Numbered from the stretch's first letter, positions 12,717-64,000 are shown. The stretch is 64,000 bases of DNA from Promethearchaeota archaeon (GCA_014728035.1 WJMJ01000034.1:30541-94540), one strand, 5' to 3'. Program-made: numbers and translations. Notes: a model not told the origin generated them from the letters alone.

Positions 12717-13220
12717 ATGACCAAACGCACAATATCAGTTATAGGTGGTTCTGAAGTAGACTCTGAAACTATCAAGATTGCATACGAAGTCGGAGCTGAG
12801 ATAGCAAGAAGAGATATCGTTCTCATTTGTGGTGGAATGGGAGGAGTTATGGAATCTGCTTGTAAAGGAGCAAAAGAAATGGGAGGCACAACAGTGGGCA
12901 TCCTGCCGACAGACACAAGAGAACATGGAAATCAGTATTTAGATATCGCAATACCTACTGGACTAGGGTATACAAGAAACTTCATTGTTGCTAAAGCAGC
13001 GGACGGAGTAATAGCTATTAACGGATCAGCGGGAACTCTTAGTGAAATGGCAATAGCTTGGTTTTCCGATATACCGATAGTAGCACTTACAATTTCCGGA
13101 GGATGGGCAGAAAAACTAGCGGGTAAAAAGATTGACCATAGAAGAGAAGATATCATATTTCCTGCAAATACTGCACATGAAGCTGTTCAAGCTATTTTTA
13201 CAGCAAATAAATGGGACTAA
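12717..13220 (+). CDS. TIGR00725 / LOG (SMF/DprA-LOG) family protein
   Basis: ICGGMGGVMESAC, TVGILP, TGLGYTRN, GSAGTLSE. Confidence 0.9.
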   Translation: MTKRTISVIGGSEVDSETIKIAYEVGAEIARRDIVLICGGMGGVMESACKGAKEMGGTTVGILPTDTREHGNQYLDIAIPTGLGYTRNFIVAKAADGVIAINGSAGTLSEMAIAWFSDIPIVALTISGGWAEKLAGKKIDHRREDIIFPANTAHEAVQAIFTANKWD

Positions 13221-13237
13221 GACTAATGGTGTTTTGA

Positions 13238-14074
13238 ATGGAACTGACGAGGCGAATTATTGATGGAGAAGAGAGGCCTTCAATAGACGACGTGAAAAAA
13301 ATACTTGAAAATGTCCATGAATTATACAGCGAGAAGCCAAACGTAGTAAGCACTCCAAACACCTCAATATATTATATCGGCGACCTTCACGGTGAATACC
13401 AATCAGCCAAGACAGTTGCAGAAAAAATCCAACACAGCAAAGCCCATTTTGTATTTCTCGGAGATTATGCTGACCGAGGCCCTGCACAGGTGGAAACTGT
13501 AATTCTACTTCTAGCTTTAGCGATAGAATATCCAAAACGAGTGACTCTTCTGAGAGGGAATCATGAATCTGAAGAGATTGCAAAAAGTTATGGTTTCTAT
13601 ATGGATATTTCTAGAAAATATCGGGATTCTTTATTCTATAACTTCATCAAAACATATTCAGTCCTACCTCTTGCTGGTCTAAGTAGGAATGGAATCTTTT
13701 GTTGTCATGGAGGTATCCCAGAAGGAGTAAAATCTATAGATCAGATACAGACGATTGATAGATTCGACCCGAATTTCCCAGATGATATTGCATTTCAGAT
13801 TGTATGGAACGACCCTGTAGACGCATCCGTGCGCTTTCGTAGAAACATGAGGTCATCAAGAGCTCGAGAATTTGGTGAGAAAGCATTTCAAGATTTTTGT
13901 GAAGAAATTGGTGTTAATTTATTCTTTCGTGCTCATGAAGCATATAAAGAAGGATACAAGACATTCTTCGATAATAAGTTGGTAAGCATTTTCAGTACAT
14001 CATATCGAGATAAAATATCTCCAAAAGTAGCTTTTGTCGATACAAAAATAGAATACGAGATAGAGAGCTTGTAA
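13238..14074 (+). CDS. PPP-family Ser/Thr protein phosphatase
   Basis: GDLHG, GDYADRG, LRGNHE, HGGI, WNDP, FG, RAHE: the full PPP motif set. Confidence 0.92.
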   Translation: MELTRRIIDGEERPSIDDVKKILENVHELYSEKPNVVSTPNTSIYYIGDLHGEYQSAKTVAEKIQHSKAHFVFLGDYADRGPAQVETVILLLALAIEYPKRVTLLRGNHESEEIAKSYGFYMDISRKYRDSLFYNFIKTYSVLPLAGLSRNGIFCCHGGIPEGVKSIDQIQTIDRFDPNFPDDIAFQIVWNDPVDASVRFRRNMRSSRAREFGEKAFQDFCEEIGVNLFFRAHEAYKEGYKTFFDNKLVSIFSTSYRDKISPKVAFVDTKIEYEIESL

Positions 14075-14184
14075 TAATTACTTGTACATAATTTGCTCTT
14101 GAGTCAAATACTTAAGAGGGACAAATAACGCAAACACGACTGTAAACTTCATAAGCTACGAAGTCTGCTAACGAGATGATTGAA

Positions 14185-15264
14185 ATGCCCAAAGTTGCCG
14201 TTGTGAAGACAAGTCCAAAAACCATTAATGAAGACATTGCGCGTCTTCTAGACTTGGCGGAGTATGAAAAACACGTTGACAAGGATGTCGCTACTTCAAT
14301 AAAGCTGAATCTTTCTTGGAGTAAATTTTATCCTGCATGTTCTACAAACCCCTATATTCTAGATGGATTATTGAAAAAGATGATAGCAGATGGATTCGAC
14401 CCCAGGTCAATCCAGGCTGTTGAAAACGAAACGGTAGTCACCAATATTTGGGCAGGAGTAAAGGGAAACAATTGGTGGCCAGTTATGCGCAAACACAAGA
14501 TTAGCTTCCTTCCACTGATAAATGCCACTTATGTTCCTGTTGAATTACCTCAAGAAACACTTGTACTTGAAAAAATATTTGGCGAAGTCATAGCTCCAGA
14601 AGAAATTTTCAATACAAATATCATTCACTTGCCGACTGTCAAGACCCATGGACATACTCAAATGACTGGAGCGTTAAAAGATTCTTTTGGCCTCTATCTA
14701 ACCAAGAATAGACACCTTGCGCATCTAAAAATTCACGAAGTGCTCGTTGACCTGTTATTATTACAGCAAACAATATCTCATTCGGAATTTGTTCTGACCG
14801 ATGGAACAGTGATGGGTGATGGCGCAGGCCCAAGAACAATGATACCAAAGATTGGCAATATTCTCATCGCAACCAACGACATGGTTGCTGCAGACACGAT
14901 TCAAAGTAGACTCATGGGTATTCCTTTGAATTTGGTCAAGAAAATACAAATCGCACACGAACTTGGTCTTGGTGTTGCTGACCCTGAAGAAATAGAAATA
15001 GTGGGTGATTTTGAATCATATCAAGATCTACCCAATTTCCATATGCAGACGAGTAAAAGCCCTGTTATCACTTGGAATAGAGGATTCCTCAAATTCCCAG
15101 GAATGGAAACTCTTCTTTTCAGGTCACCTCTTATGTGGTTGCCTACTCAACTATCCGGCCTATATCACGACGGTATCTGGTTACCACTTAAAGGAAAGAA
15201 ATGGGTCAACTGGTTCCTCGAAGAAACTGAATGGGGCGAACTCTGGAAAAGCTACTCAGAATGA
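14185..15264 (+). CDS. DUF362 domain protein (no ferredoxin tail)
   Basis: IKLN, LPTVKTH, MTGALKDSFG, DGTVMGDGAGP, DMVAAD are typical DUF362 motifs; start MPK (14185) or 14176. Confidence 0.8.
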   Translation: MPKVAVVKTSPKTINEDIARLLDLAEYEKHVDKDVATSIKLNLSWSKFYPACSTNPYILDGLLKKMIADGFDPRSIQAVENETVVTNIWAGVKGNNWWPVMRKHKISFLPLINATYVPVELPQETLVLEKIFGEVIAPEEIFNTNIIHLPTVKTHGHTQMTGALKDSFGLYLTKNRHLAHLKIHEVLVDLLLLQQTISHSEFVLTDGTVMGDGAGPRTMIPKIGNILIATNDMVAADTIQSRLMGIPLNLVKKIQIAHELGLGVADPEEIEIVGDFESYQDLPNFHMQTSKSPVITWNRGFLKFPGMETLLFRSPLMWLPTQLSGLYHDGIWLPLKGKKWVNWFLEETEWGELWKSYSE

Positions 15265-15274
15265 AGGTGAAGAA

Positions 15275-16228
15275 ATGGGATTAAAAGCATACGTGAAATT
15301 AATGCGTCCGCATCAGTGGTACAAAAATCTACTAGTATTTATTGCCTTGATATTTGCAGGAGTTAGAGCAGACCAACCGAATCGCATGTTTGACTATTTG
15401 AATATTGAGAGCCTAACCCCACTCATATTAGGTTTCTTAGCTTTCTGTGCAATCTCAAGCTTTGGATATATAATCAATGATATTGCCGATAGAAAAGAAG
15501 ATGCGGTGCATCCTGAAAAGAGGAATAGACCCATTCCCTCAGGAGAGGCGAAATTTTCCATAGCTATCATTTTAGCGATGGTACTGTTTGCTAGCGGGCT
15601 TGTTACTTCATATATACTGCATCCATTATTCTTCTTGATGGTAGTTCTCTATATCATAAATTCTCAGTTCTATAATTTCTATTTGAGAAATTGGGCAATT
15701 GTGGATGTAGCATCTATCGCTTTTGGCTTCATCCTTCGTGCAGTATCTGGCACATTCCTATTACACGTACCATTCACTTCTTGGTTAATTGTTGGAATCT
15801 TCTTCTTCGCATTAGTACTGGGATTTGGTAAACGCTACAATGAATTACAATTGCTGGGAGATGATGCTGCAGATCATAAATTCGTGTTCACTCAGTACAA
15901 CAGAGAAATATTGCAACAGGCAATTGGTGCATCTTCTACATGGGTTGTGATGTTCTATGCCCTCTACACATATCAGAATTTCATGGACATCATGGCTGAT
16001 TTTCCTGTTATGCTTACTGTGCCCATAGCTGCCGGACTAATGCTAAGATATGTCTATCTTATCTATAGTGGAAGTCCAGTTGGAAGAAAACCACATCTTG
16101 CATTCAAGGATAAAGGTATCATAGTTGGTACTATCCTTTTTGCTTTCGTATTCTTCTTGACTCTGTATTATTGGGTACCTCTAAGGGATTTCATTCTCTC
16201 TCTATTTCCAAATATTGAATGGTGGTAG
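15275..16228 (+). CDS. UbiA-family polyprenyl-phosphate phosphoribosyltransferase (DPPR synthase-like)
   Basis: MRPHQWYKNLL, YIINDIADRKEDAVHPEKRNRPIPSG, GFILRAVSG, GKRYNEL are diagnostic of the Rv3806c-like subfamily; start MGLKAY at 15275. Confidence 0.88.
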   Translation: MGLKAYVKLMRPHQWYKNLLVFIALIFAGVRADQPNRMFDYLNIESLTPLILGFLAFCAISSFGYIINDIADRKEDAVHPEKRNRPIPSGEAKFSIAIILAMVLFASGLVTSYILHPLFFLMVVLYIINSQFYNFYLRNWAIVDVASIAFGFILRAVSGTFLLHVPFTSWLIVGIFFFALVLGFGKRYNELQLLGDDAADHKFVFTQYNREILQQAIGASSTWVVMFYALYTYQNFMDIMADFPVMLTVPIAAGLMLRYVYLIYSGSPVGRKPHLAFKDKGIIVGTILFAFVFFLTLYYWVPLRDFILSLFPNIEWW

Positions 16229-16902
16229 AAATGGACTCACGCCTTTCTGCATTTGACTTGCACAGTCATACATTGCATTCGAAAGATGGCCTCAACCGAG
16301 GTCGGTATCTGTTCAAATGGATGAAGAAGAAAGGTCTCAGGGGGATGGCATTAACAGAACACTGGAGTCCTTCGATAACAAAGCCAATTGTTCATGATGG
16401 CAGATTCCTACTGAATGGTTGTGAGTTTAAAACGACAGATTATGGAGAGCTGATTGGTCTTTTCGTTACAGATACAATCGAAAATAGATCATTCGTTGAA
16501 GTTGCAGAAGATATCCATGAGCAAAATGGCCTAACAATTCTGCCACATCCGAGAGACCCCACACGAAAACATACTGCTGTTAGAAGAGGCCTCCCAGATG
16601 AGCTCATTTCAAAACATGTTGATCTGATAGAGGGAATCAATTCTAGATGCCTATTACCAATTTTTAATACATGGGCACAAAAATTGGCAGAAAAATTGAA
16701 GAAACCTGTCACTGCTGGAAGTGATGCTCATTCATGGTTAGAAATAGGGCATGCAAGAACATATCTACAAGATATCGAGACCGTCAGTGATATATATGAC
16801 AGATTGAAAAAGGGACAAACTCAGATATCCGGTTATCCATCCTTTTTCTGGGTTCACATTCCTACAATGATATGGCAAAGAATACGGAAGCTAGCAAAAT
16901 GA
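16219..16902 (+). CDS. PHP-domain phosphoesterase
   Basis: DLHSHTLHSKDG, LTEH, GCE, PHP, GSDAH; overlaps the UbiA stop. Confidence 0.88.
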   Translation: MVVEMDSRLSAFDLHSHTLHSKDGLNRGRYLFKWMKKKGLRGMALTEHWSPSITKPIVHDGRFLLNGCEFKTTDYGELIGLFVTDTIENRSFVEVAEDIHEQNGLTILPHPRDPTRKHTAVRRGLPDELISKHVDLIEGINSRCLLPIFNTWAQKLAEKLKKPVTAGSDAHSWLEIGHARTYLQDIETVSDIYDRLKKGQTQISGYPSFFWVHIPTMIWQRIRKLAK

Positions 16903-17942
16903 CAGAAATAGAAGATTGTGCAGTTGAAACAGACGAATCATTCATCAGTATACGGAAGGTCGTATTGTTTGTTCTTATTGGGATTATTCTGTATTTGGCA
17001 ATTACTTTGATTTCCAATGTTGAAGATATTGTCAATGCACTGGTAGAGATTCAATGGTGGTGGGTATTGCCAACAATGATGCTCTTGTCATTTGGAAACT
17101 ATTTGTTTAGGTATGTCAAGTGGCAATATTACCTTCAGAAGATTGATGTCAATCTTTGCCATAAGGATAGTTTCACAATATTCCTTGCAGGATTTACACT
17201 TACAACAACACCCGGAAAGATAGGAGAAGCTATCAAGGGTGTGTTCTGTAATGAAGTAGATGGAGCTCCAGTAGCAAAAACAGTACCAGTAGTGGTATCA
17301 GAGAGAGTAACAGATCTTCTAGCAATGGTTCTGTTAGCTATGATTGGTTTTGTGATAGGAGTCAATACTGAAAATCAATTATTACAAGTTCTAATGCTTG
17401 GTGGTCTAGTCTTGGTTGGTGCAATTATTCTTGGACGCCCATCATTCTACAATAAGATTGTCAAAAAGATGACGACGATAGGTCCATTGAAACGGTTTCA
17501 GGATAGTTGTGATCTAATTGAAGATACAATGACAAAGACCTTAGCTCCAAAACCGATGATACTCTCCACACTTGTTAGTGTGCCAGGATGGTTCATGGAA
17601 TGCCTTGAGCTTTGGTTGCTGCTTAGCTTGCTAAGTGGAGCTGGTCTACCTTCACTTACTGCTCCATCACTGATTCTATTGTTGGAAGCAACATTCATTC
17701 ACTCCACTGCATCAATCATAGGCGCAATATCTTTCACTCCAGGGGGATTGGTTGGTTACGAAGCTGTTTCAATCTTCTTGATAACAACATTGCTTGGCTT
17801 TCCATTAGCAGATGCAAGTGTAGCAACTATTCTGATTCGATTCGTAACGCTTTGGTTCAGCGTCATTGTCGGATTCATCGCCTTAGGAGTTCTCACAAAG
17901 ATGAATAGAAATAGGGAACAAGATGCAATCCATCAAGCTTAA
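16899..17942 (+). CDS. Flippase-like membrane protein (LPG synthase TM / UPF0104 / AglD2-like)
   Basis: RYVKW, TTPGKIGEAIK, ERVTDL, TPGGLVGYE, IRFVTLW; ATGA overlap with the PHP gene. Confidence 0.85.
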   Translation: MTEIEDCAVETDESFISIRKVVLFVLIGIILYLAITLISNVEDIVNALVEIQWWWVLPTMMLLSFGNYLFRYVKWQYYLQKIDVNLCHKDSFTIFLAGFTLTTTPGKIGEAIKGVFCNEVDGAPVAKTVPVVVSERVTDLLAMVLLAMIGFVIGVNTENQLLQVLMLGGLVLVGAIILGRPSFYNKIVKKMTTIGPLKRFQDSCDLIEDTMTKTLAPKPMILSTLVSVPGWFMECLELWLLLSLLSGAGLPSLTAPSLILLLEATFIHSTASIIGAISFTPGGLVGYEAVSIFLITTLLGFPLADASVATILIRFVTLWFSVIVGFIALGVLTKMNRNREQDAIHQA

Positions 17943-62731: not shown

Positions 62732-64000
62732 TTACCATACCCAGATAGCTAAAAGTTGCATAGTAGCAGCTTGTAAAAATGTCATGATAAGCAATAATAT
62801 CCAATCCCTTTTACGCACATTCTTTTCCTTCAGATAGTAGATAACTGGAAGGAGAATCATTGGAAGGATAAACATACAAATTCGGGCTGTTTCTCCTTTC
62901 TTTGGAGCACCAGTTAAGAACAACAAACCAAGAGCGATGACACTTGCTACGAAAATAGATAGTATTTCAATTACATCTGTATCTTGGTCCATTTCATTCC
63001 ACATATGAAATCCAAGGACTGCTAATACAGTTAGAATAGGTCCAACAAAGACTAGGATATCCATCACATCTTGAACACGGGTGATTAGATAATTCAGGGG
63101 ATTATCCACCAACATGAAGCCATTTGGGTTCTCTACTGATGAAGCATGAAGGAATGAGTCAACATAATTGAAACCCAATCCAAGCCAGAGTAGAATGTAA
63201 AATACTCCACCAATTATTCCGATTGCAATCAGCTTCCAAATTGAATGCATGAATGATTGAAATTGTTCAAGAAAACTACTAGGTGTTCTAGTTTTCAGGT
63301 AATGTACAACTTCAAACAAAAACAAGAATAATGCCATATACACGAACAAGAATGACGTGAAAGATCCCAAAATAAAGCAGACAGCACTACCGAGGATTTT
63401 AGTAAATTGGTCATCCTGTAGATAGAAATACAGCATCCCAGCTGCATATGTCGCAACCATGGCATAGATATTTGCAAGATAGTAAACCTGCACTGCGGGT
63501 AGAACAAGAAAGAGTAGAACTGCATACCTACTTGTTTCCTCCCCGAAATATTTACGATAGATCCCATCAATGAAAAAAGCACTGAAGAGAGTAGCAACCC
63601 CACAGAGAGCTATAGCGATAACACCTGGTTCCTGGAATACCACATAGAATAGATGCATTGTAAGAACTGCAAAAGGAGGCTGGGTCTGAGCATGTGTCGT
63701 AAGAGATCCCTGGTTTTCCACATACATACTGATGAATTCCAAGGGGTTAGTTATTGCCATGGCATCAGTTAGAATCTCATTAGATGAACCAATAGCGGAA
63801 TAAATCCCGATGAACCACCCATGAATGAAATTCGTGCTTATGATGAGTAAAAAACCAAAAATCGCAATAACTGGTAATGATGGGATTCCTCGCCCTGTTT
63901 TATAGAAATAATACATCGTTGTTACAAAAAGGGATGATACTACTGCAAAGAATATGATTTCAAACAGGGTAGGTGATACCAATTGGCCCCATAACGGCCA
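62732..64000 (-). CDS. Polytopic membrane protein, probable GT-C glycosyltransferase; may be 5'-truncated
   Basis: About 11 TM; loop THAQTQPPF (H/QPP motif of PMT/GT39-like proteins), GETARI; frame stays open to the window end. Confidence 0.55.
   Translation of the reverse strand, partial: WPLWGQLVSPTLFEIIFFAVVSSLFVTTMYYFYKTGRGIPSLPVIAIFGFLLIISTNFIHGWFIGIYSAIGSSNEILTDAMAITNPLEFISMYVENQGSLTTHAQTQPPFAVLTMHLFYVVFQEPGVIAIALCGVATLFSAFFIDGIYRKYFGEETSRYAVLLFLVLPAVQVYYLANIYAMVATYAAGMLYFYLQDDQFTKILGSAVCFILGSFTSFLFVYMALFLFLFEVVHYLKTRTPSSFLEQFQSFMHSIWKLIAIGIIGGVFYILLWLGLGFNYVDSFLHASSVENPNGFMLVDNPLNYLITRVQDVMDILVFVGPILTVLAVLGFHMWNEMDQDTDVIEILSIFVASVIALGLLFLTGAPKKGETARICMFILPMILLPVIYYLKEKNVRKRDWILLLIMTFLQAATMQLLAIWVW

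Follow-up and report, generated by a model that had tools for sequence, protein, structure and literature searches.

A DUF362–UbiA operon in an Asgard archaeon as a candidate front end of lipid-linked pentofuranose glycosylation

Main

Extracytoplasmic pentofuranose glycosylation has been described as a three-component process that uses a polyprenyl-phosphate phosphoribose synthase with phosphatase activity (PPPRS-PRP), a flippase and a GT-C glycosyltransferase (Kelly et al. 2024, PMC11127046). In the prototype, from Citrobacter youngae O1/O2, these parts are ORF15 (PPPRS-PRP), ORF14 (a MATE flippase) and ORF12 (a GT-C enzyme of family GT136), and auxiliary cytoplasmic epimerases fix the identity of the sugar, ORF13 leading to xylofuranose and DprE1/E2 homologues to arabinofuranose (PMC11127046). 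Here we analyse a 64,000-nucleotide stretch of a Thorarchaeota (Asgard) genome assembly (WJMJ01000034.1:30541-94540; the whole stretch is called the window below) in which a four-gene operon encodes a DUF362 protein, a UbiA-type transferase resembling decaprenylphosphoryl-5-phosphoribose (DPPR) synthase, a PHP phosphoesterase and an MprF-type flippase-like membrane protein. A sequence-only reading of the window had proposed that these genes form a lipid-linked pentose donor pathway lacking DprE1/E2, with DUF362 as a new metal-dependent epimerase. We find that the UbiA–DUF362 pair is conserved across archaea and bacteria and that the DUF362 protein is modelled with the fold of LarA, the nickel-dependent lactate racemase that uses a nickel-pincer cofactor, which makes it a candidate for the step that sets the identity of the pentose.

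Pfam clan CL0471 unites DUF362 with the LarA N-terminal domain (DUF2088), and the LarA field has used DUF362 as an outgroup only (PMC11770544). In L. plantarum LarA, acid/base catalysis falls to the pair His108 and His174, a thioamide links Lys184 to the nickel-pincer nucleotide it tethers, and His200 completes the nickel coordination (PMC12611868). Outside the LarA superfamily, the known users of the nickel-pincer cofactor are the AKR-type enzyme NphT (PMC13524815) and, cited in the same paper, an ornithine cyclodeaminase whose cofactor is a related form with an adenine dinucleotide. In the open literature searched, neither a function for DUF362, a large family, nor a link between DUF362 and the nickel-pincer cofactor is reported.

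Results

A UbiA–DUF362 core shared by archaea and bacteria

A UbiA of the DPPR synthase type together with DUF362 forms the conserved core of these loci, whereas PHP phosphoesterase, MprF-like flippase and GT-C genes are frequent accessories. Relatives of this DUF362 subfamily occur in at least 598 species-representative genomes of Archaea, Asgard included, and Bacteria, and a DPPR synthase-like UbiA lies near DUF362 in 39 of the best 80 species-level loci, many bacterial phyla among them. Because the pairing recurs in Asgard archaea, methanogens, DPANN archaea and bacteria, the linkage is not a matter of chance, and the association with DPPR synthases proposed from this one operon extends well beyond it.

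Thorarchaeota and Hermodarchaeota loci on sufficiently long contigs show DUF362–UbiA–PHP–flippase as in the window, and so does an archaeal lineage whose orthologue is 60% identical. Elsewhere the same parts are rearranged, as UbiA–PHP–flippase–DUF362–PMT_2 in Methanobacterium, as DUF362–PHP–UbiA within a glycan cluster in a woesearchaeote, as PMT_2–DUF362–PMT_2 with a UbiA nearby in a parvarchaeote, and as GT2–UbiA–PHP–DUF362–flippase, with a PMT_2 gene on the opposite strand, in metagenome contigs L117 and L118. In bacteria (for example Aminicenantes, Acidobacteriota, Peptococcaceae, Planctomycetota and Methylomirabilia), UbiA usually stands immediately upstream of DUF362. Across an even sample of Asgard genomes the orthologue was found in 80 of 151, in six families (31/32, 28/29, 10/14, 6/7, 3/3 and 1/1) and in none of the others; the corresponding count for Chloroflexota, which includes the unpublished genome G357, is 34 of 151.

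In Methanosarcina barkeri Wiesmoor the cluster reads UbiA, a 902-amino-acid (aa) membrane/TPR protein, PHP, flippase, DUF362 and a 303-aa protein; in the 902-aa and 303-aa proteins, TPR and AftB-like signals are no more than faint. Directly upstream of this cluster is a gene for a geranylfarnesyl-type polyprenyl synthase. A few kilobases away, with IS110- and DDE-type transposase genes in between, there is a further pair made up of a second DPPR synthase-type UbiA (263 bits) and a PMT_2 GT-C gene.

Enzymes of donor synthesis and export

The UbiA protein is predicted to be a polyprenyl-phosphate 5-phosphoribosyltransferase of the DPPR synthase type that uses phosphoribosyl pyrophosphate (PRPP). 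Its top NCBIfam matches are three decaprenyl-phosphate phosphoribosyltransferase models, with named models of ordinary prenyltransferases at 63 bits or below, and its alignment with Mycobacterium tuberculosis Rv3806c (PDB 8j8j) keeps NDxxDxxxD, HPxKRxRPI and GKRYxEL. The catalytic loop motifs YIINDIADRKED and GKRYNEL are both present and align to those of Rv3806c, YIINDIADRKEDAVHPEKRNRPIPSG falling on YLVNDVRDVEADREHPTKRFRPIAAG and GKRYNEL on GKRYAEL, so that the aligned motifs take in NDxxDxxxD of loop II and RxxE of loop IV. The loop II residues are required for activity, as mutagenesis of both Rv3806c and Citrobacter ORF15 has shown (PMC11127046). Among 32 UbiA proteins adjoining DUF362 orthologues, N68, D69, D72, D76, K186 and R187 are invariant, and UbiA proteins of clusters elsewhere exceed the cut-offs of the DPPR synthase models (262.6 against 234 bits in M. 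barkeri, and 226.9 against 207 bits for NF008978 in marine contig L145).

The PHP protein has the HxH and DAH metal motifs, matches a CehA/McbA metallohydrolase model (4e-15) and, weakly, the PHP phosphoesterase 3e0f, and its gene accompanies UbiA and DUF362 in archaeal loci and in some metagenome contigs; from family and context it is a candidate 5-phosphatase of polyprenyl-P-ribose-5-P. A gene of the LPG_synthase_TM family likewise sits inside the clusters of M. barkeri, Methanobacterium, other Asgard genomes and marine contigs, which makes the flippase-like protein a candidate exporter of the lipid-linked pentose. Homology and conserved context thus support the UbiA–PHP–flippase frame of the sequence-only reading. 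Potential users of the donor are found next to related loci: PMT_2/TMEM260-type GT-C genes flank DUF362 in Methanobacterium, Parvarchaeota, Latescibacterota and contigs L117/L118, and GT-C genes adjoin loci L073, L046, L056 and L117.

A search of this whole genome, which is 97.9% complete with 8.5% contamination, detected no ALO domain (the C-terminal part of DprE1), although the same search was positive in a Corynebacterium control. Among 50 other carrier genomes, just two have the domain. The absence of DprE1 noted for the window therefore holds genome-wide; DprE2 is an ordinary short-chain dehydrogenase, too generic to call, and its claimed absence lay outside the search.

Predicted fold and active site of DUF362

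The DUF362 protein, whose best matches are Thorarchaeota proteins, contains no Fer4 domain and a single Cys, in PACST, and carries KTHGH and RHLAH, all as described from the sequence beforehand. No sequence of a solved structure was matched by phmmer at E <= 10. An AlphaFold2 model built from an alignment of 50 diverse relatives was obtained with a predicted local distance difference test score of 96.4 and a predicted template-modelling score of 0.94, and on this model DUF362 has the LarA fold. A structural search against representatives returned 7s91, 9eia, 9q3j, 5huq and 4nar at Z 13.8-15.7, with the next hit, an unrelated fold, at Z 5.2. The top ten Foldseek hits are all LarA-family, nine of them named as LarA, malate racemase or LarA-like and the tenth being 4nar, an unnamed structural-genomics protein.

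Within this fold, the DUF362 motif KTH158GHTQMTGALK168DSFGLYLTKNRHLAH183 can be set against the LarA segment ESH174FFAGFSGGRK184SVLPGIASYKTIMANH200, the alignment from which the LarA numbering was set. Two independent profile-profile alignments, one with a non-canonical and one with a canonical LarA clade, give the identical register, H158 with His174 and K168 with Lys184, and we tentatively take these residues as counterparts on the strength of those low-probability alignments. DUF362 profiles run against single LarA sequences or low-diversity profiles gave no usable alignment. H183 lies at K+15, and the nickel-binding His of LarA lies at K+16 in two structures (K184/H200 and K195/H211); H183 is probably the counterpart of His200. 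Across 33 UbiA-linked orthologues from archaea and bacteria, H151, K156, T157, H158, K168, R179, H180, H183, H187, D192, D209, D235 and D240 are invariant, and about 59 columns are invariant across both domains of life. N84 and T86, in the region equivalent to LarA His108, are invariant as well. With its modelled LarA fold and presumed cofactor-binding residues, DUF362 is a candidate sugar epimerase that would act as a single protein, and the proposal is open to direct testing.

Beyond the LarA-like core, DUF362 ends in an extension that is 17.8% aromatic, against 6.6% in the remainder of the protein, and contains seven Trp. Hydrophobic-moment analysis of the C-terminal helices revealed no clear amphipathic helix. 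An aromatic-rich extension of this kind would suit a substrate at the membrane interface, a weak inference.

Some orthologues, among them P0121 (882 aa), are interrupted by an intein of about 520 aa whose insertion point separates precisely K156 from T157 in the invariant KTH motif; the intein has Cys as its first residue and HN as its last, and Thr follows it. In Asgard genomes (G087, G120, G138, G194 and G197), DUF362 matches are broken at about residues 149-158. Inteins are typically found at sites critical for function.

Distribution of nickel-pincer cofactor genes

Genes for synthesis of the cofactor adjoin DUF362 loci in marine contigs that came from a metagenome scan seeded with Chloroflexota orthologues. 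In contig L135, a flippase–UbiA–DUF362 run opens with a flippase gene whose start is overlapped by larB (NF033503, 277 bits). In three further contigs with such runs, larC lies downstream of DUF362 on the same strand, at about 1.9-2 kb in L145 and L153 and about 1.7 kb in L157, and both larC halves score above cut-off in L145. The DUF362 proteins of these contigs retain the motif. In L145 the interval between DUF362 and larC is occupied by ychF, encoding a redox-regulated ATPase, and a 187-aa open reading frame of no known family; the spacing in L153 and L157 suggests the same layout.

LarC was found in 38 of 50 genomes of a mixed set of carriers and in 27 of the 31 Chloroflexota carriers searched, both sets being made up of carriers. 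For Acidobacteriota it occurs in 40 of 42 carriers and 49 of 79 non-carriers, a count that includes the unpublished genome G248, and for Asgard archaea in 76 of 80 carriers and 55 of 71 non-carriers. This phyletic profile shows an enrichment, but LarC, present in 131 of all 151 Asgard and 89 of all 121 Acidobacteriota genomes, is too common for the profile to be decisive. Neither of the two unpublished genomes, G248 and G357, carries weight in any conclusion drawn here.

The genome studied here encodes LarB, LarC and LarE, all above cut-off. These genes were rejected as evidence for the cofactor in DUF362: the genome also encodes L014, a LarA homologue that has the complete H/K/H set and explains them by itself. 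A second group of Lar_N/LarA_C proteins, an Asgard clade represented in this genome and by relatives P0271-P0279, has lost all three LarA signature residues, with His174 replaced by Asp, Asn or Ser, Lys184 by Thr, Met or Ile, and His200 by Leu, Asn or Ser; this clade is unlikely to be a nickel-pincer enzyme.

Discussion

We propose that the operon is the cytoplasmic front end of an archaeal pathway of lipid-linked pentofuranose glycosylation. UbiA would move 5-phosphoribose from PRPP onto polyprenyl phosphate, a step assigned by homology; in an Asgard host this carrier would probably be of the dolichyl type. The PHP phosphoesterase would then take off the 5-phosphate, as its family and context suggest. 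DUF362 would take a hydride from the lipid-linked ribose and return it so as to invert a single ring hydroxyl, passing through a transient keto intermediate while the hydride is parked on the cofactor, so that inversion at C2 would give arabinofuranose and inversion at C3 xylofuranose. The site would most likely hold a nickel-pincer nucleotide on Lys168 and His183, with His158 as acid/base, and a soluble DUF362 alone would replace DprE1 plus DprE2. The MprF-like flippase would carry the donor to the outer leaflet, where a GT-C glycosyltransferase encoded elsewhere in the genome may use it.

Our confidence differs between the parts of this proposal. That the operon serves a lipid-linked pentose donor pathway we regard as likely, and we lean towards DUF362 acting on the lipid-linked sugar. 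Whether DUF362 is an epimerase falls a little short of an even call, and its use of a nickel-pincer cofactor is a plausible suggestion that we hold with slightly more doubt than belief. The operon as a whole, read as the pentofuranose front end with DUF362 as its nickel-pincer epimerase, stands evenly poised. For the subfamily at large, the specific assignment as nickel-pincer enzymes that epimerise polyprenyl-P-ribofuranose to -arabinofuranose or -xylofuranose is tentative and, on balance, doubtful. Of the metal-dependent epimerase suggested by the sequence-only reading, the idea itself has gained from the LarA fold, the His/Lys/His residues and the lar genes adjoining the marine loci, whereas the single-Cys cue behind it is irrelevant to the LarA analogy.

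DPPR synthase-type linkage together with GT-C adjacency makes the operon a variant of the known pentofuranose systems (PMC11127046), and it is a variant new in Archaea rather than a wholly new pathway. The pathway type was already known in bacteria (PMC11127046). Like the C. youngae system, it combines a UbiA-type phosphoribosyltransferase with shared catalytic motifs, a dephosphorylation step and a dedicated flippase, with GT-C genes adjacent in related loci and an optional cytoplasmic epimerase that would set pentose identity. It differs in that a separate PHP protein takes the place of the fused HAD phosphatase domain, the flippase belongs to the MprF/UPF0104 type rather than to MATE, the candidate epimerase is a LarA-fold DUF362 rather than a nicotinamide adenine dinucleotide (NAD)-dependent epimerase or DprE1/E2, and the operon carries no GT-C gene.

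The mycobacterial decaprenyl-phospho-arabinose pathway (Rv3806c, Rv3807c, DprE1/DprE2, Rv3789 and the Emb/Aft GT-C enzymes) begins with a homologous enzyme (8j8j, 4e-31), and the proposed route would share its course from PRPP through lipid-P-ribose-5-P, lipid-P-ribose and the epimer to flipping and GT-C use. In contrast to mycobacteria, the genome here lacks the DprE1 ALO domain, the phosphatase is PHP rather than PAP2 and the flippase is not of the small Rv3789 (small-multidrug-resistance) type; epimerisation is proposed to proceed on one LarA-like protein with a hidden redox cycle, rather than through a flavin adenine dinucleotide (FAD) oxidase and a reduced-NAD reductase. With LarA itself, DUF362 shares the fold, the clan, a His-x9-Lys that the profile alignments put in register with His174/Lys184, a His at K+15 and the expected chemistry, inversion of a secondary alcohol by hydride transfer. 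DUF362 departs from LarA in its Pfam membership, in the missing C-terminal domain and His108 counterpart, in a presumed substrate that is a lipid-linked sugar rather than a 2-hydroxy acid, and in the DPANN carriers that lack the cofactor genes.

Several findings weigh against this proposal, some of them in the proteins themselves. The LarA family profiles Lar_N (PF09861) and LarA_C (PF21113) do not match DUF362, for which PF04015 is the sole Pfam match at E <= 0.01. Both profile-profile alignments are of low probability (12.7% and 1.9%) and end before His200, so the equation of H183 with His200 is read from spacing. No counterpart of LarA His108 was found, the aligned region N84-E-T86 being without His; single-His LarA homologues exist, but in these the missing histidine is the other one and not that of DUF362 (PMC12611868). 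The C-terminal substrate domain of LarA is replaced in DUF362 by the aromatic-rich helical extension. UbiA scores 16 bits under the 234-bit cut-off of NF008977. The operon has no GT-C gene, and the nearest PMT_2 match is about 45 kb distant. Others concern the cofactor genes. Adjacency to lar genes is rare, at 4 of 80 marine-type metagenome contigs, with ychF standing between DUF362 and larC there; no lar genes lie within 8 kb of DUF362 in the 80 species-level loci, and no lar adjacency was seen in the 31 Chloroflexota carrier genomes. LarC is common with or without the orthologue in the sampled phyla, where Fisher tests ignore relatedness, and the lar genes of this genome, given L014, are not diagnostic. 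Twelve of the 50 carriers lack LarC, mostly small (0.6-1.2 Mb) DPANN-type archaeal genomes, and none of five DPANN-type carriers searched for LarB has it.

These cofactor results bear most directly on an alternative in which the pathway is the same and DUF362 works without the nickel-pincer cofactor, isomerising, oxidising or otherwise modifying the pentose. It would then rely on a simple metal ion, on a nicotinamide cofactor or on acid/base chemistry of the conserved His/Lys/Asp site. DPANN carriers keep the motif without LarC and LarB (a woesearchaeotal orthologue examined retains H158, K168 and H183), so that DUF362 in these genomes is either cofactor-independent or host-dependent; Bacteroides thetaiotaomicron, in the control panels, is positive for DUF362 and negative for LarC; and the 80 species-level loci show no adjacent lar genes. 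DPANN archaea commonly depend on hosts for cofactors, and such dependence would explain the missing genes. The larger, non-DPANN carriers are mostly LarC-positive (most of the 12 negatives in the set of 50 are DPANN-type), and the other samples agree. The LarA-like spacing of an invariant Lys exactly ten residues past the His, together with a further His at K+15, also speaks for the nickel-pincer site, as do the translational coupling of larB to the operon in L135 and the nearby larC in three contigs. We judge the cofactor-free alternative unlikely, although it deserves consideration.

Two further readings depart more widely from epimerisation. Plain polyprenyl-P-ribofuranose might be delivered, with DUF362 serving in regulation, substrate handover or on another molecule of the glycan pathway; epimerase-free systems do make ribofuranose side chains (PMC11127046), and a predicted complex of UbiA with DUF362 scored 0.00 against a mark of 0.32, a result that gives no verdict and is evidence neither way. 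Yet DUF362 is the most constant partner of UbiA, the minimal bacterial unit being UbiA then DUF362, its invariant columns include the LarA-like catalytic motif, an intein is located in that motif, and enzymes of this fold are known for a single chemistry, the inversion of a hydroxyl through transfer of a hydride (PMC11770544, PMC12611868); delivery of unmodified ribofuranose is accordingly improbable in our estimate. UbiA might instead be an ordinary prenyltransferase in the synthesis of a membrane lipid or of a carrier resembling a quinone or phenazine, with DUF362 as its redox partner and no lipid-linked sugar at all, a reading to which the polyprenyl synthase gene upstream of the M. barkeri cluster, the annotation of certain DUF362 proteins elsewhere as ferredoxin and the subthreshold score of the window UbiA would lend themselves. 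DPPR synthase models nevertheless lead widely, at 218 bits against at most 63 for named prenyltransferases, the Rv3806c PRPP-site motifs are kept, the pair is accompanied by GT-C, GT2/GT4 enzymes and a phosphoesterase, and this DUF362 subfamily has no Fer4 domain, all of which leaves the prenyltransferase reading very improbable.

Were DUF362 a nickel-pincer epimerase of lipid-linked pentose, it would be the first LarA-clan enzyme with a substrate other than a 2-hydroxy acid, extending nickel-pincer chemistry to membrane-bound glycolipid donors, and it would stand as a second, unrelated way, with one protein, of carrying out the DprE1/DprE2 step, itself a major target of tuberculosis drugs. 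A DUF362 subfamily represented in at least about 600 species-level genomes would thereby acquire a function, and part of the reason why many genomes make the nickel-pincer cofactor would be explained. DPANN carriers without the cofactor genes would either scavenge the cofactor or have a cofactor-independent enzyme. The hypothesis bears on both nickel-cofactor biology and archaeal glycobiology: it assigns the subfamily a concrete substrate, a reaction and three mutable residues, and it predicts pentofuranose-decorated surface glycans in Asgard archaea, methanogens, DPANN archaea and many uncultured bacterial phyla.

Gene layout and additional observations

The four genes of the operon are co-directional and tightly packed (Table 1), and the junctions described in the sequence-only reading were all recovered when read again. 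A 10-nucleotide gap separates DUF362 from UbiA. The UbiA stop codon TAG (16226-16228) is overlapped by 10 nucleotides if PHP starts at ATG 16219 or is followed after 2 nucleotides if it starts at ATG 16231, and with the flippase start at 16899 the PHP and flippase genes share an ATGA overlap (16899-16902). Orthologues place the start of DUF362 at 14185 (MPKVAV).

Table 1 Coordinates of the operon and of other features discussed in the text. Locations without a prefix are positions in the window.
Feature	Location	Strand	Matches and remarks
Operon	14176-17942	+	Four genes
DUF362	14176-15264	+	PF04015 7.4e-20; 362 aa from 14176
UbiA, DPPR synthase type (predicted)	15275-16228	+	NF008977 218.2 bits; 8j8j 4e-31
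PHP phosphoesterase	16219 or 16231 to 16902	+	PHP_C 1.7e-13; PHP 9.3e-5
MprF-type flippase-like membrane protein	16872 or 16899 to 17942	+	LPG_synthase_TM PF03706 2.5e-37; TIGR00374 8e-20
SLOG/LOG-like gene and calcineurin-like phosphoesterase gene	12717-14074	+	TIGR00725 (SLOG/LOG-like)
PMT_2-type GT-C gene	63293-63682	-	Reaches contig end; open frame 422 aa
Second UbiA and PMT_2 pair, M. barkeri Wiesmoor	L001:10088-17118		UbiA 263 bits
ychF and 187-aa open reading frame, marine contig	L145:11093-12175		Between DUF362 and larC
Lar_N/LarA_C protein without signature residues	L016:1471-2727		G000 C77
SLOG/LOG-like and calcineurin-like genes, related archaeal lineage	L004:579-6073		Near operon; orthologue 60% identical
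DUF362 paralogue with FAD_binding_4 gene	C71:4373-7544		G000
DUF362 paralogue with FAD_binding_4 gene	C151:95182-100514		G000

Downstream of the operon lies a tyrosyl-tRNA synthetase gene. The SLOG/LOG-like and calcineurin-like genes upstream recur near the operon of the archaeal lineage with the 60%-identical orthologue, and the pair probably reflects lineage synteny, not function.

The PMT_2-type gene in the window is one of five PMT_2 matches in this genome, all unlinked to the operon, and is a possible user of the lipid-linked donor; the PMT_2 protein of the Methanobacterium cluster has no homologue detected in this genome. Giant surface proteins with immunoglobulin-like (Ig) repeats, encoded just downstream of the operon, are possible acceptors.

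This genome (G000) encodes about ten DUF362 paralogues. Two of them, on contigs C71 and C151 (loci L018, L021, L030 and L031), adjoin FAD_binding_4 genes of the GlcD/D-lactate-dehydrogenase type. These neighbours hint at a role for other DUF362 subfamilies in the metabolism of hydroxy acids or in redox metabolism.

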